From sequence record OP856590.1: 64,000 nt of DNA. One strand, written 5' to 3'. Below the pieces are notes generated by a model. That model was not told the DNA's origin. It made no database searches and worked only from the letters and a program-made list of their open reading frames with translations. The translations under genes and the position numbers were made by a program. Below, in pieces: positions 16,416 to 22,116 of this stretch (the stretch's first letter is position 1; each line of letters starts with the position of its first letter). The stretch is from Escherichia phage Ec_MI-02.

Positions 16416-17380
16416 TGTATTCTTTAGAGGAATTTAATAATCAAGCAATAAACGCAGATTTCCAACGTAATAATATGTTTAGCTGCGTTTTTGCGACAAC
16501 TCCATCAACTAAAAGCTCTTCGTTGATAAGTTCAATTAGCAACTTTTCTTATAATAACTTGGGTCTAAATTCAGACTGGTTAGGATTGACTCAAGGCGAT
16601 ATTAATCAGGGAATTACCACGCTAATTACTGCTGGCACACAAAAACTGATAAGAAAATCAGGGGTTAGTAAATATCTTATTGGTGCCATGAGTCAACGTA
16701 CAGTTCAAAGTTTATTGGGCTCATTTACAGTTGGTACATATTTAATTGATTTCTTTAATATGGCATATAATTCATCTGGATTGATGATATATTCTGTAAA
16801 AATGCCAGAGAATAGATTATCCTATGAAACTGACTGGAACTATAATTCTCCTAATATTCGCATAACTGGGAGAGAATTAGACCCTTTGGTTATTTCATTT
16901 AGAATGGATTCAGAAGCTTGTAACTATCGTGCAATGCAAGACTGGGTTAACGCTGTTCAAGACCCAGTAACTGGACTGCGTGCTTTGCCGCAAGATGTCG
17001 AGGCAGATATTCAGGTTAATCTTCATGCTCGTAATGGATTACCTCATACTGCAGTGATGTTCACCGGATGCATTCCAGTGTCAGTGAGCGCTCCTGAGCT
17101 ATCATATGATGGAGATAACCAAATAACTACATTTGATGTTACTTTTGCGTATAGAGTCATGCAGGCTGGGTCGGTTGATAGACAAGCTGCGCTTGAGTGG
17201 CTTGAATCTGCTGCTATAAACGGTATTCAAAGCGTTCTCGGAAATAGTGGAGGTGTTACTGGATTATCTAATTCGCTTTCACGACTTAGTAGATTAGGGG
17301 GAACTGCTGGAAGCATTTCAAACATTAATACTATGACGGGAATTGTCAATTCGCAAAGTAAAATATTAGGAGCAATATAA
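16415..17380 (+). CDS. 54: baseplate tail tube initiator gp54
   Basis: 321 aa, overlapping start with the gene 48 stop. Confidence 0.9.
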   Translation: MYSLEEFNNQAINADFQRNNMFSCVFATTPSTKSSSLISSISNFSYNNLGLNSDWLGLTQGDINQGITTLITAGTQKLIRKSGVSKYLIGAMSQRTVQSLLGSFTVGTYLIDFFNMAYNSSGLMIYSVKMPENRLSYETDWNYNSPNIRITGRELDPLVISFRMDSEACNYRAMQDWVNAVQDPVTGLRALPQDVEADIQVNLHARNGLPHTAVMFTGCIPVSVSAPELSYDGDNQITTFDVTFAYRVMQAGSVDRQAALEWLESAAINGIQSVLGNSGGVTGLSNSLSRLSRLGGTAGSISNINTMTGIVNSQSKILGAI

Positions 17381-17384
17381 CAAT

Positions 17385-17402
17385 GGGGACCGAAAGGTCC
17401 CC
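17385..17402. terminator. bidirectional stem-loop between gene 54 and the alt operon
   Basis: GGGGACC-GAAA-GGTCCCC flanked by T-run. Confidence 0.7.
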
Positions 17403-17408
17403 ATATTT

Positions 17409-17699
17409 TTATTTACGGAATGAAATAAAAGCAGCAACTGAAGCAACTAAGCTGTCTTCAATATAAACTTCAATTTTTACCGGAGCTTCTGACTCAAATT
17501 TACCTGTTACTACACCTTGGAAAATGCTTTCAGTCTGCTCTGGCTTTGAAAAATTTTCAGAAGGAAAAATTCCGAACTTTTTATCTGTTCCAAAAATTTT
17601 GATAAATTCATCATAAACTGCTTCATTAAAAGCGTTATCAGCAGGAATAACGCCTTCAACTACAAGTTCTTGACCTAAAAAGCGTAAAGAAGATTTCAT
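17409..17699 (-). CDS. hypothetical protein (alt-downstream small ORF)
   Basis: 96-aa ORF with its own early-type promoter and RBS GAGGAA. Confidence 0.7.
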   Translation of the reverse strand: MKSSLRFLGQELVVEGVIPADNAFNEAVYDEFIKIFGTDKKFGIFPSENFSKPEQTESIFQGVVTGKFESEAPVKIEVYIEDSLVASVAAFISFRK

Positions 17700-17730
17700 T
17701 TTGTGTTCCTCATGTTATGTCAGTAAAACT

Positions 17731-17759
17731 ATTGTAACACAACACGAGGGACTTGTAAA
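17731..17759 (-). promoter_or_regulatory. sigma70-type early promoter (TTTACA-17-TACAAT) with conserved leader
   Basis: minus-strand GTTTACAA, 17-nt spacer, TACAAT; part of a 53-bp element repeated at 33441-33493. Confidence 0.6.
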
Positions 17760-19817
17760 CTACATCTTGAACTTTTTAGACATTCCGTTGATGTTAACCA
17801 AAGAAGCCAAGATTTGAGAAACTTCGTTTTCCTCTTCTTTTGATTCTTCTACAAGGAATTGATTAAACCCAGCCATTGGACGAACTTCACCAGTTTCCAT
17901 TAGATGATCGCCATCATATACCGATTCTTCTAATTGTTCAGAAGGAGGAACGATTGTGCCTTCGATTAGATACTTATTATAAGCAGTTTCTTTCATCATG
18001 TACGTGCTCACTTTATTAATCTTCAGCAAAATTCCACGCGGTAAAATAACTTCAGCTTCTGATGGAAATCCTGATAAATGACCTGGAACGATAACTTTGA
18101 TTCGCTCAGCCCCTTTAATTACCATACCTACGCTAGTTTCAGCATCTTCATTAGCATATGCAGAATGACTACCCATATGCATTAAATCTTCAGCATCAAC
18201 AGAACCTTCTCCTTCACCAGAAAATACTGCGCCGGAATCATCTAGAGCCATATAGTTTTTACCATGCTCACCGAAGATATTTGGTTTAAGCGATGTTGAT
18301 ACGAAGTTCTTGAAATAGAACATTTTATTTTCAATATTATGACGTAAAGTTTTAAAAGTAACTTCTTGTCCACGATAAAGCGTAGTTCCCGGAGGAAGAA
18401 CTGATCCTTTGGCAAAGGCAGAATCCATTGTCTCGATGTGTTTAATAGCTCGTTCCATGTATTCTTCACGGGTAGAATCTGGTTTACCCAAGAGGAACGA
18501 GTTCATTTCAACATATGAATCTGCACAATAATCTTCGATTACATCAGACTCAGCCTGAGTCAGTCCTTTTGGAGTTACTTCGGTGCTTGCATATTCATAT
18601 GCCTGAGCAGCAGATTCATTAATCAATTTATAAATGCCATTCATGACAAATTGAATAATAGCTACCTTTTCGTCTGGTGTGGCTTTAGAACCTTTAACTA
18701 AATCATTGATAATTTTCTTAATAACATCAAAGCTATTAGAAATATTAATGTCAGCGAGATCGCTCAAAATTTTATCGGTTTTATAATCAAAAAATTCTTT
18801 ATTCTTTAAATATTCTTGAGAACCTTGATGTGTTATATCGCTCTGCAGTCTGATAGACGGATCACGTAAACGTGCATGGGCCAATGCAATATGATTTCGG
18901 AAGCTTTCTAGTTCATAATCGCTAGATTTAAAACGAGAAGCACTTCTCATACCACCGATAGCTCCTTTTCCGAAGTTTGAACCAATCTGAATAACACCAG
19001 AGTTCATTGGTCCTTCTGCTTTATATACCGGAACTTTAGATTCAAACTCTTGATATTTCTTGGCAGCGAAGCTATCACCCTGAAGCGAAGCATCTACAGT
19101 AGAATATTGAGCTTGTGCTGCCAATCGACGACTAATTTTAGTTTTCTGAATAACAGCTTGATCCGTGCGCTTATCATTTTCTAAAGCAATAGAAGCAGCA
19201 ACAGCAACAGCTTTAGGAACAGCATTACCTGTTTTAACATCTACATAAACATCACCAACCTTTGATTCAACTTTTGTGAATAACTCAGTTGAAATAGGAG
19301 GTACACCTGGAATGTCTTCTAAATTGGCATTTTTACGGTAAACCATAATATATGCATACTTTTTATCATAATCCCAGATTTCCTTTAAAAGAACATATCG
19401 ACCTGCTCCTTTAGTACGTACTAAACGGTCAGCAATAACTTGCATTTGACGAGCAGCTCCATTTGTTTTACTTTTTAGTACGCGGAATAGGCATGCGTCA
19501 ATTTTATACTGTTTCATTGTTTGAAGAGCAGTATCAAAAACCGCATTAATGACACCAATTGGATTTCCACCCAAGTTTTTAAGTTTAACTAATGATAGTT
19601 TCTCATTAACACCTATCATTACGATATGCATCATTTTATCGCCTGGCTTAACGTTTTTATTTGTATCACCACCAGAGGTGTATGTACAAAATCTAAATCC
19701 AGGAAGCACACTTTCTTCGCCGGCTTGAATAGCAAAAATTTGAGGTATTTTATGCTTAGGATTTAAGTTAACAATCGGCGCCGAAGCGCCGTCAAATAAT
19801 TCTGTAATAAGTTCCAT
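17760..19817 (-). CDS. Alt-like ADP-ribosyltransferase paralog (copy B, diverged)
   Basis: 685 aa; N-terminal third similar to copy A; retains the ART motifs Arg (LYRGQ), FVSTSL and E-x-E (EAEVILPRG). Confidence 0.8.
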   Translation of the reverse strand: MELITELFDGASAPIVNLNPKHKIPQIFAIQAGEESVLPGFRFCTYTSGGDTNKNVKPGDKMMHIVMIGVNEKLSLVKLKNLGGNPIGVINAVFDTALQTMKQYKIDACLFRVLKSKTNGAARQMQVIADRLVRTKGAGRYVLLKEIWDYDKKYAYIMVYRKNANLEDIPGVPPISTELFTKVESKVGDVYVDVKTGNAVPKAVAVAASIALENDKRTDQAVIQKTKISRRLAAQAQYSTVDASLQGDSFAAKKYQEFESKVPVYKAEGPMNSGVIQIGSNFGKGAIGGMRSASRFKSSDYELESFRNHIALAHARLRDPSIRLQSDITHQGSQEYLKNKEFFDYKTDKILSDLADINISNSFDVIKKIINDLVKGSKATPDEKVAIIQFVMNGIYKLINESAAQAYEYASTEVTPKGLTQAESDVIEDYCADSYVEMNSFLLGKPDSTREEYMERAIKHIETMDSAFAKGSVLPPGTTLYRGQEVTFKTLRHNIENKMFYFKNFVSTSLKPNIFGEHGKNYMALDDSGAVFSGEGEGSVDAEDLMHMGSHSAYANEDAETSVGMVIKGAERIKVIVPGHLSGFPSEAEVILPRGILLKINKVSTYMMKETAYNKYLIEGTIVPPSEQLEESVYDGDHLMETGEVRPMAGFNQFLVEESKEEENEVSQILASLVNINGMSKKFKM

Positions 19818-19820
19818 GAT

Positions 19821-21878
19821 TTATCCTTGAACGAACTTGTAAGGCATGTTTGCAATATCTATGCAAGATGCAATAATTCCAAGAGATGATTCTACTTTTT
19901 GTTTAACATTTGATGAAACAAATGATGCAAAATCAACTCTGTCTTCTATTTCAATATCACCTGTCATTGCAACTACTTCACCGGTTTCCATTAGACGGTC
20001 ACCGTCATAAATTACTGATTCGGTGAGTTCTTCTGTAGTCATAACTTCAGCTTGAATAAGCTTGTTGTTAGTTTTAGCTGTTCCATCATTGTAAGATGCG
20101 TCGGTTATTTTATTGACTTTGACCATCAATCCACGCGGCAAAATGACTTCCATTTCATTTGAAGGCGCTAAACTTCCACCTGGTAAAACAACGTTGACTT
20201 TATCAGCCCCAGTAATAACCCATCCAATTCCAACTAAATTATCGCTAGAATTAACAAGTCCTTCATCGTTTTTATCGATAGAAATGTTTAGACGCTTTTC
20301 GTCTGGTAAAACACCCACAGCTGAATCAGTCATCCAAGTACCAAAAATGTTTGGATATAATGATGTTGATACAAAATTTCTAAAATAAAAAACTCGATTT
20401 TTTACCAATGCTTCATATATTGAAGGTAACATTCGCTGTGAACGATATAAAGTAATACCTTTTGGCAGTCGATCACCATTTTTAAAGGCTGAATCTAAAT
20501 TATCGATGGCTTGTTCTATTTCTGGTGCTGTTAAAATACTTGTACGCTCATCTGGATTATATAATCCCAAAAGAGCATTATTCATGTCTACATATCCTGA
20601 ACCTACGTATTCACGAATTCCGCGTTTTTGTGCCGGTGTGTATTTAGATGAATCTTTATTTTCGACTATAGAATGCAATGACCATCCAACGGTAAGAGCA
20701 TATCCACGTAATTCTCTTCGAATAATCTTTGTTTTTATTGCATTCCAAGAATTTTGCACTAACTCATTCGCAGCATCTTGATTTAAATGCGAATGCTTGT
20801 TAATATTTCTTTCTAACCAAGCACCTTTATATTTTTCTAAAGTATCATCAACTATAGAAGCAATAGTTTCTAAAGTTTTTATTGAAGTAATAGATTCTTT
20901 TCGTAATCTTTCTAAAGCTTTATTTTTTATTTCTGCATTAACATCAGATTCTTTATCTTCAGGAATTATAGAAGCTTCTCTGAATGCCATTCCAGCTGTA
21001 ACACTATTAAGAGCATTCTCTAATGCAAATCCTGAAGTAGAAATAACAGTTAATTCGTTAGCATCAGAAATTAAAGGCGCGTCAGCGGGTTTATTTAATT
21101 CTGCTGCTGAAGCCTCAAATTTTTGAAACATTGGTGTTTCAAATCTAGAAGATTCTAACGATTGACTTTGTGCAATTGCTCTACGGGAAATTTTAACTTT
21201 AACGATTACAGCTTGATCAGAACGTTTATCGTTTTCTTGCGCAATAGATGCTGCAATTGCCTCATTTTTAGTTACTTGAGCTCCAGTATCTTTATTGATA
21301 TAAACATCACCGACCTTCGATTCAACTTTAGTAAAGAGCTCGGTACTAATTTCCGGAACTCCTGGAATGTCTTCTAATGATACATTTTTGCGATGTATAA
21401 GAATATATGCGTACTTTTTATCGTAATCCCAGAGTTCCTTAAGAAGGACGTATCTGCCACCTGAACGACTGCGGATAAGTCTATCAGCAATAAGTTGAAT
21501 TTGACGAGCTTGACCAGCAGTTTTAGACTTAAGAATACGGAGCATACAGGCATCAATTTTATACTGACGCATCGTCTGCATCGCAACAGTAAAAACTGAA
21601 TTGATGTAATTAATTGGGCTTGGACCGAGACCTTTTAATTTAGCAATTGAACCTTTGGCAGTTAATGTAAAAGGAACAATATGCATCATTTTATCGCCCA
21701 TCTTTAAATCGCGATTAGTATCACCTCCAGATGTATAAGTACATAAACGAAAGCCTGGTTGTTCAATTGCGTCATCAACATGAACTGAAAAAATTTGCGG
21801 TATTTTCTTCTTTGGATTTAAGTTTGTAATCGGAAGAGTAGTATCTTCGTCAAATAATTCTGTAATAAGTTCCATCAT
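19821..21878 (-). CDS. alt: Alt ADP-ribosyltransferase (virion-packaged)
   Basis: 685 aa; MELITELFDEDTTLPITNL N-terminus; ART motifs LYRSQ, FVSTSL, EMEVILPRG. Confidence 0.9.
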   Translation of the reverse strand: MMELITELFDEDTTLPITNLNPKKKIPQIFSVHVDDAIEQPGFRLCTYTSGGDTNRDLKMGDKMMHIVPFTLTAKGSIAKLKGLGPSPINYINSVFTVAMQTMRQYKIDACMLRILKSKTAGQARQIQLIADRLIRSRSGGRYVLLKELWDYDKKYAYILIHRKNVSLEDIPGVPEISTELFTKVESKVGDVYINKDTGAQVTKNEAIAASIAQENDKRSDQAVIVKVKISRRAIAQSQSLESSRFETPMFQKFEASAAELNKPADAPLISDANELTVISTSGFALENALNSVTAGMAFREASIIPEDKESDVNAEIKNKALERLRKESITSIKTLETIASIVDDTLEKYKGAWLERNINKHSHLNQDAANELVQNSWNAIKTKIIRRELRGYALTVGWSLHSIVENKDSSKYTPAQKRGIREYVGSGYVDMNNALLGLYNPDERTSILTAPEIEQAIDNLDSAFKNGDRLPKGITLYRSQRMLPSIYEALVKNRVFYFRNFVSTSLYPNIFGTWMTDSAVGVLPDEKRLNISIDKNDEGLVNSSDNLVGIGWVITGADKVNVVLPGGSLAPSNEMEVILPRGLMVKVNKITDASYNDGTAKTNNKLIQAEVMTTEELTESVIYDGDRLMETGEVVAMTGDIEIEDRVDFASFVSSNVKQKVESSLGIIASCIDIANMPYKFVQG

Positions 21879-21898
21879 ATCCTCTCTAGTGTTTATTC

Positions 21899-21906
21899 TA
21901 TTTATA
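21899..21906 (-). promoter_or_regulatory. late promoter motif upstream of the alt operon
   Basis: exact TATAAATA on the minus strand 21 nt upstream of the alt ATG. Confidence 0.6.
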
Positions 21907-21911
21907 AAATT

Positions 21912-21929
21912 AAAGGCCCGAAGGCCTTT
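21912..21929 (-). terminator. stem-loop upstream of alt / downstream of the ligase operon
   Basis: AAAGGCC-(loop)-GGCCTTT hairpin. Confidence 0.6.
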
Positions 21930-22116
21930 AATAATCTATTGGTAAGAGAGTACGGTATATTTCAAACTTTGGACCTTTTTCATAGGCATCAAATGTTTCT
22001 GTGAATTTATTATAAGCATATGCATCTATAAATTCAATCATAATTTGTGATACAGAAGTAGAAACATCTCCACCTTCTTTTTGAGCCACGACAATTGTTT
22101 CTAAATAAGCTTTCAT
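21928..22116 (-). CDS. hypothetical protein (62 aa)
   Basis: ORF whose start overlaps the ligase stop. Confidence 0.6.
   Translation of the reverse strand: MKAYLETIVVAQKEGGDVSTSVSQIMIEFIDAYAYNKFTETFDAYEKGPKFEIYRTLLPIDY

Follow-up and report, generated by a model that had tools for sequence, protein, structure and literature searches.

A tandem alt paralog predicted to encode a second packaged ADP-ribosyltransferase in Escherichia phage Ec_MI-02

The 64,000-nt stretch of Escherichia phage Ec_MI-02 DNA analyzed here (OP856590.1; referred to as the window) carries on its minus strand two adjacent genes for Alt-type ADP-ribosyltransferases (ARTs): alt itself, encoding gpAlt (copy A, 19821..21875), and a full-length alt paralog immediately downstream (copy B, 17760..19817). 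We consider it likely that this region combines the Tequatrovirus alt gene with an old full-length paralog that is expressed late, packaged like Alt, and directed at partly different host targets. The gene pair is real yet already known, as full-length copy B is annotated in T2, T6, RB32, and hundreds more genomes. The window belongs to Tequatrovirus: over the 4.9 kb surrounding the pair, identity to Shigella phage pSs-1 is 99.1%, and >370 Tequatrovirus records cover at least 80% of this region. The points added here are the mechanism of the deletion that removed most of this gene from T4 and the conservation in copy B of both sites recognized by the gp21 prohead protease.

A preliminary description made from the letters alone had reported two 685-aa minus-strand open reading frames (ORFs) 3 nt apart; the spacing and the length of copy B (685 aa plus stop) hold, but copy A is most likely one residue shorter. 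Although its ORF was listed as 19821..21878 (685 aa), the second ATG, at 21875, is the more probable start, giving 684 aa plus stop, since the pSs-1 annotation agrees and the T4 Alt protein (682 aa) begins with MELITE. The TAA stop codon of copy A (19821-19823) is followed by the spacer ATC (19818-19820), and the pSs-1 annotation shows an identical layout. Each protein can be divided into an N domain, a helical middle domain, an ART domain, and a C-terminal propeptide, which are encoded on the minus strand by 21165-21875, 20661-21164, 20019-20660, and 19824-20018, respectively, in copy A and by 19104-19817, 18588-19103, 17925-18587, and 17763-17924 in copy B.

The similarity between the two proteins is far above chance (42% identity; BLASTP E value, 3e-158) and is unevenly distributed. 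In a global alignment, the N-terminal ∼237 aa are 55 to 82% identical per 40-aa window, the ART region is ∼30 to 50% identical with the exception of one loop, and the C-terminal tail is 25 to 45% identical. The first nine residues, MELITELFD, are the same in both copies, and the N domain as a whole is 67% identical. The homologous N terminus and the alignable catalytic region proposed at the outset are thus confirmed, as are the shared motifs quoted in their support: LYRSQ in one copy and LYRGQ in the other, FVSTSL in both, EMEVILPRG and EAEVILPRG, and the segment ESV(I)YDGD(R/H)LMETGEV.

Profile searches assign both proteins to the ART family. PF03496 (ADPrib_exo_Tox) matches copy A with 117.9 bits and copy B with 72.8 bits (cutoff, 23.4), covering profile positions 13-191 of 196 in the latter, and the "Alt-like" family PHROG 802 matches both end to end (copy B residues 1-685 against profile positions 2-674; E value, 4e-255). 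PF26846 (Tevenvirinae_ADPRT) is the precomputed assignment for a 99%-identical protein (P0001) and for genes in loci L003-L007. The predicted catalytic residues are R478, S503-T-S505, and E574-M-E576 in copy A and R482, S507-T-S509, and E587-A-E589 in copy B. Nine positions are invariant in a 64-sequence family alignment (Y430, D465, R482, S507, E587, E589, P593, R594, and G595 in copy B numbering), and this set includes the putative R/S-T-S/E-x-E residues of arginine-specific ARTs. Confident AlphaFold2 (AF2) models were obtained for copy B (pLDDT, 81.9; pTM, 0.75) and copy A (pLDDT, 81.0; pTM, 0.69). Copy B does model as an ART, with the arginine-specific Vis toxin as its closest structural match, so the failure to adopt this fold that the preliminary description had named as a possible refutation did not occur. 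A sequence search of solved structures returned none for copy B and only marginal CDTa matches (E value, ∼0.005) for copy A, with no Alt protein among them. Together, the E-x-E motif and the Vis match indicate that copy B is a predicted arginine ART; the closest known systems include bacterial ART toxins, both arginine specific and of the C3/VIP2 type (Vis, Certhrax, C3bot, iota/CDTa, and VIP2).

Within the catalytic domain, the copies differ at the ADP-ribosylating turn-turn (ARTT) turn, which comprises residues 584-586 of copy B (window 18060-18068) and 570-573 of copy A (window 20157-20168). In C3- and iota-type ARTs, this turn contributes to substrate recognition. Copy B has Phe584 there, three residues before E587, and an aromatic residue (Y, F, W, or H) occupies this position in 47 of 63 family members. 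T4-type Alt, which has LAPSN and no aromatic residue at the turn, is an outlier in the family.

The argument for packaging comes from comparison with T4 Alt (NP_049811), a packaged and injected NAD:arginine ADP-ribosyltransferase of which copy A, at 96% identity, is the ortholog. T4 Alt is a component of the prohead core, present in ∼40 copies (PMC5694885; PMC9026906), and is cut by gp21 at ITE-6 and LTE-619, which trims 6 residues from the N terminus and 63 from the C terminus, leaving a mature protein of 68.2 kDa (PMC5694885). It is injected with the DNA and ADP-ribosylates RNA polymerase alpha and other host proteins; one alpha subunit is modified (the Arg265 "alteration") immediately after infection (PMC9026906). 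Copy A has both ITE-6 and LTE-619, and its computed mature mass, 68.2 kDa, equals the published T4 value. Copy B also has ITE-6, and its LEE-631 falls opposite LTE-619 in the alignment; cleavage at these sites would yield a mature protein of 69.1 kDa and an acidic C-propeptide of 54 aa. At least 90% of family members keep each of the P1 glutamates, E6 and E619 (E631 in copy B), and the ESVYDGD(R/H)LMETGEV segment corresponds to the second of these glutamates plus the first residues of the C-propeptide. Because both gp21 motifs mapped in T4 Alt are retained and the N domain is 67% identical, packaging and processing of copy B appear likely, and the protein is best viewed as a probable second arginine ART that is packaged and injected. 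Copy B resembles T4 Alt in its four-part architecture, its R/S-T-S/E-x-E residues, ITE-6, the site aligned with LTE-619, and its predicted late operon, and differs from it in overall sequence (42% identity), an unalignable middle of ∼170 aa, the aromatic ARTT residue, and the length of the C-propeptide (54 versus 65 aa).

Both genes are probably transcribed late. An exact T4-type late promoter, TATAAATA, lies on the minus strand at 21899..21906, with 23 nt separating it from the start codon of alt. Neither strand has another exact copy between 11124 and 27492. Over the entire window, the octamer shows no statistical excess (12 found versus 8.7 expected), but its position here is identical to that in the T4 alt upstream region. 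Time-resolved transcriptome and proteome data show late expression of T4 alt itself (PMC9697503). Copy A contains no exact match to the late promoter, only variants with one mismatch at 21300 and 20648. A search for a separate promoter for copy B found none, as copy A harbors neither an exact TATAAATA nor a full MotA-box consensus nor an early-type promoter; relaxed TGCTT-type matches number only two (20863 and 19093), and a sigma-70 scan stayed at background (23 found versus 27 expected). Copy B has a Shine-Dalgarno sequence of its own, AAGGA (19824..19828, minus strand), within the last codons of copy A and 6 nt before the copy B ATG; it is identical in T4 upstream of alt.-1. Given one late promoter, no consensus internal promoter, and a Shine-Dalgarno sequence overlapping the end of copy A, cotranscription of alt and copy B from a single predicted late promoter is well supported by sequence, in agreement with the preliminary description.

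Between the N and ART domains, the two proteins cannot be aligned. Residues 238-405 of copy A and 239-410 of copy B (∼170 aa) share 8 to 25% identity in the global alignment, which is noise level. An earlier claim that ∼230 central residues are unrelated is correct as to the lack of detectable sequence similarity but overstates the size of the region. Among the middle regions of 65 family members, A-type and B-type clusters were never linked in pairwise phmmer comparisons (E value, ≤0.01), and hhalign of the cluster profiles gave a probability of 3.6%; no remote homology was thus detected at the sequence level. Each middle region matches PHROG 802, but this profile mixes both types and so is no proof of homology.

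The lack of similarity does not appear to reflect a domain swap, which the preliminary description had inferred. Synonymous divergence (dS) between copies A and B is saturated (1.0 to 1.6) in every region, so no part of the pair is younger than the rest. Recent gene conversion is thereby also ruled out as the reason for the conserved N domain, which has been kept by selection (ratio of nonsynonymous to synonymous divergence [omega], ∼0.22 against saturated dS). The middle region is of similar length, mostly 145 to 185 aa, in all family members. Both AF2 middle domains are all-helical, with helices at residues 248-260, 272-280, 282-294, 306-324, 332-348, 350-360, and 366-405 in copy A (helices 1 to 7) and at 250-260, 273-281, 286-295, 301-318, 328-338, 340-355, 362-374, and 381-409 in copy B (helices 1 to 8). 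Compared by position, in two models built from one shared alignment, these helices are nearly collinear. The copy B model also superimposes on an independently predicted model of SP18 alta (648 columns; TM scores, 0.69/0.75), whose middle region has no sequence similarity to that of copy B. The saturated dS, the family-wide length, and the collinear helical predictions all speak against a swapped-in domain; the models suggest that the middle is one ancestral helical domain that has diverged very fast rather than a foreign insert.

Copy B is widespread. The protein is found at ≥95% identity in ∼396 phage records, and its DNA is covered over ≥80% of its length in ∼401. The same 685-aa gene, between alt and alt.-3, is intact in RB32 (alt.-2; YP_803136), T6 (alt.-2; AXN58232), and T2 (labeled alt.-1; AYD82791), being 2,058 nt long in T6 and T2, as well as in pSs-1 (gp209; YP_009111014). 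At ≥95% protein identity over ∼400 records, we see no substantive difference between these genes and copy B. They have been annotated in different ways: the records call the product "hypothetical," an "apparent insertion in alt.-2," or an "Alt-like ART." Annotation of the gene goes back to the RB32 genome, whose entry reads "alt.-2 ... apparent insertion in alt.-2; similar to alt," T6 carries the same note, and RefSeq names both pSs-1 genes "Alt-like RNA polymerase ADP-ribosyltransferase." Comparison of copy B with its ortholog in O157 typing phage 7 gave a dS of 0.247, a nonsynonymous divergence (dN) of 0.011, and an omega of 0.044; copy B is a maintained gene under strong purifying selection. 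Alt paralogs of this kind are mentioned in a 2006 and a 2026 paper.

Whether the T4 reference already carries the second copy had been left as a question, and it can now be answered: T4 has a deletion remnant alone, annotated as alt.-1 and alt.-2, while T2, T6, and RB32 annotate the full-length gene. The T4 record attributes alt.-1 (61 aa; NP_049810) and alt.-2 (67 aa; NP_049809) to an old duplication of the start of alt. They correspond to the first ∼117 codons of copy B at 97% DNA identity, whereas the remnant (L002 3066-3451) is only 73% identical to alt. PHROGs built on the two T4 proteins likewise match copy B far more strongly (E values, 6e-40 and 3e-38) than copy A (1e-21 and 2e-19). 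T4 DNA is 97% identical to window 19886..19470, which includes the 5' end of copy B, and then resumes at 17779..17364. The 9-nt repeat CTAAAAAGT is present on the minus strand at both break points, upstream at 19470..19478 (left end of the T4 deletion) and downstream at 17771..17779 (right end), and a run of five A residues in copy B (19654..19658, minus strand) has four in T4, a frameshift that divides the remnant into alt.-1 and alt.-2. From these repeats, the 97% identity, and the missing A, we conclude that the T4 remnant reflects a 1,699-bp microhomology deletion between the repeats, plus a 1-nt frameshift, in a full-length gene. On this evidence, the "insertion" of the RB32 and T6 notes has the direction of the event reversed, and the "duplication" of the T4 note differs from the indicated deletion as well.

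A probe spanning the T4 junction identified the T4-type junction in 91 phage records, and in ∼390 others the match is confined to the downstream half of the probe. T4, the source of nearly all knowledge on injected phage ARTs and the model for all Alt biology, is the exception, a natural deletion mutant in which the second enzyme has been lost, with the mechanism of its deletion now apparent. The second enzyme is still encoded, under strong selection, by T2, T6, and about four-fifths of sequenced relatives.

These observations are consistent with the following course of events. Late in infection, alt and copy B would be transcribed as one unit from TATAAATA at 21906-21899, and copy B would be translated from its own Shine-Dalgarno sequence and ATG, 3 nt past the alt stop codon. 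Each product would combine a conserved N domain of ∼237 aa, a variable helical middle of ∼170 aa, a C3/VIP2-type R-S-E ART domain with an E-x-E motif, and an acidic C-propeptide. Copy B would then follow the Alt route, entering the prohead core, being cleaved by gp21, and being injected with the DNA. In the next host, it would probably modify a partly different set of proteins, since the copies are unlike in the middle domain, in the loop that separates S-T-S from E-x-E, and in the ARTT turn. A published report likewise speculates on broader targets for Alt paralogs (PMC13600099).

Several points weigh against this scenario. The packaging, processing, injection, and target spectrum proposed for copy B rest on conservation, and our literature search turned up neither virion proteomics nor an activity assay nor genetic work on copy B from any phage. 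The C-propeptide of copy B is only ∼38% identical to that of copy A. The late promoter call depends on a consensus match together with T4 data, and part of the resemblance between the helices of the two middle domains may be an artifact of the alignment shared by both AF2 runs. In addition, T4 and 90 other records lack an intact copy B, and some metagenome contigs have a single A/B hybrid gene, so copy B is dispensable, at least on some hosts.

Copy B could alternatively be a redundant backup, packaged and injected like Alt and acting on the same substrates (Arg265 of RNA polymerase alpha and the other Alt targets), so that it would merely raise the enzyme dose. Shared architecture, processing motifs, and the E-x-E arginine signature fit such a role, as do the survival of T4 without copy B, the nonessential nature of alt itself (PMC9026906), and the contigs with one hybrid gene. 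We nevertheless regard redundancy as unlikely: the copies have long been separate, as their saturated dS attests, each is under strong purifying selection (omega of 0.04 for copy B), their middle domains cannot be aligned, neither the ARTT turn nor the loop from S-T-S to E-x-E is the same, and pure redundancy rarely persists in a phage genome over ∼400 records. If copy B were instead made late and left unpackaged, it would act on host or phage proteins in the producing cell or upon release at lysis. The predicted late transcription unit and the divergent C-propeptide are compatible with this possibility, to which we assign a small probability in view of the identical MELITELFD start, the 67%-identical N domain, the family-wide presence of both gp21 P1 glutamates, and natural hybrids at the alt position that join an A-type N domain to a B-type effector, suggesting that N domains are interchangeable delivery modules.

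The loss of copy B from T4 and 90 other records through deletion and frameshift could also be taken to mean that the gene is a decaying or inactive duplicate, on its way to a T4-like remnant. This is very improbable for a 685-aa ORF that is intact in ∼400 records, has a dN/dS of 0.044, keeps all catalytic residues invariant, and yields a confident ART model. Unexpected chemistry has been reported among the ARTs of this phage family, and T4 ModB reportedly carries out RNAylation, the transfer of NAD-capped RNA. Copy B might by analogy transfer ADP-ribose or NAD-capped RNA to a nonprotein or otherwise unusual acceptor, but the E-x-E motif and the closest structural match, Vis, point to arginine, and we give this idea hardly any credence. 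A second late, packaged enzyme with partly different targets therefore remains our preferred reading of copy B.

A broader idea is more tentative, and we would sooner expect it to fail than to hold in full. Alt proteins may form a modular delivery system, with a constant N domain and C-propeptide that bring the protein into the head and flank an exchangeable cassette of middle and ART domains that recombines between phages and between tandem genes; copy B would then be an additional injected effector aimed at a host target of its own, which might be a component of defense or translation. If so, it was overlooked in the T4-based literature because T4 is a natural alt.-2 deletion mutant.

The alt position itself has two allele types, a T4-type allele of 682 to 684 aa (the window and T4) and a 697-aa type (RB32, T2, T6, and O157 typing phage 7), which we compared using window 19821-21875 and L008 4362-6455, L004 5001-7094, L010 6363-8456, and L011 5805-7898. 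Their N domains (dS, 0.21) and C-propeptides (dS, 0.25) are almost identical; the middle shows 35% aa identity and a dS of 1.06, and the ART domain shows 67% aa identity and a dS of 1.33. The middle and ART domains are thus far more diverged, as would be expected if an effector cassette flanked by constant end modules had been replaced. Separately, some metagenome and Sequence Read Archive contigs (L006 4001-6061, L007 4001-6055, and L003 5001-7061) carry, between alt.1 and alt.-3, a single alt gene with an A-type 5' end and a B-type remainder. Four different crossover points, all in the N domain, are represented among these hybrids (P0003, P0004, P0005, and P0007), which is the product that would be expected from unequal recombination between tandem copies. 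We considered whether the hybrids are k-mer assembly chimeras; this is unlikely, as the longest exact identity between copies A and B is 28 nt, below k values of 31 and 99. The hybrid state was not seen in any isolate genome among the best matches.

In a set of 1.84 billion cluster representatives, only 114 match copy B at an E value of ≤0.001; full-length Alt-like proteins make up about 60 of them, and approximately half of the latter match in two pieces, the N domain and the ART domain only. Tandem Alt-like paralogs have been described in other genera (44RR ORF187c/188c and RB49 ORF183c; PMC1524935), and these genes, like SP18 alta/altb, are adjacent and occupy the same genome position as copies A and B. 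In SP18 (L009 3968-7912), the upstream alta (624 aa) has no C-propeptide match and falls outside both middle-sequence clusters, and the downstream altb is A-type in its middle domain and A-like in its tail. Judged by these features, the tandem alt pairs of different genera are not one-to-one orthologs. T4 ModA and ModB are R-S-E ARTs from this phage group whose substrates are host proteins of transcription and translation. By their descriptions, they are set apart from the Alt proteins as small, early, unpackaged enzymes without an N domain, a middle domain, or propeptides.

The surroundings of the pair match those in T4, with the gene order gene 30 (DNA ligase), alt.1, copy A, copy B, alt.-3, and gene 54 (opposite strand); the position of the Alt-family genes between gene 30/alt.1 and alt.-3/gene 54 is conserved for the pair. 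The upstream neighbor, alt.1 (21928..22116, minus strand), belongs to the Phage_blade family (PF24647; E value, 7.5e-29) and to the gene 30 transcription unit. Directly after its stop codon, a UUCG-tetraloop hairpin followed by a U-rich run occupies 21912..21929 on the minus strand. This hairpin is identical in T4 and unusually stable (−13.5 kcal/mol; z score, −3.6; 0 of 200 shuffles equally stable), and it probably ends early gene 30-alt.1 transcripts; it was not among the results of a consensus terminator scan.

On the other side, alt.-3 (17409..17699, minus strand; DUF5498, PF17602; E value, 1e-64) is the final gene ahead of a terminator. A T4 early-type promoter for alt.-3 (GTTTAC, a 17-nt spacer, and TACAAT) lies at 17731..17760 on the minus strand, overlaps the copy B stop codon, and is conserved in T4. 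The gene is probably also present on the late alt transcript and may thus be expressed early from its own promoter and late by readthrough. In the gap separating alt.-3 (minus strand) from gene 54 (plus strand), a bidirectional terminator hairpin with a 9-bp stem containing six GC pairs is located at 17383..17404 and was detected on both strands.

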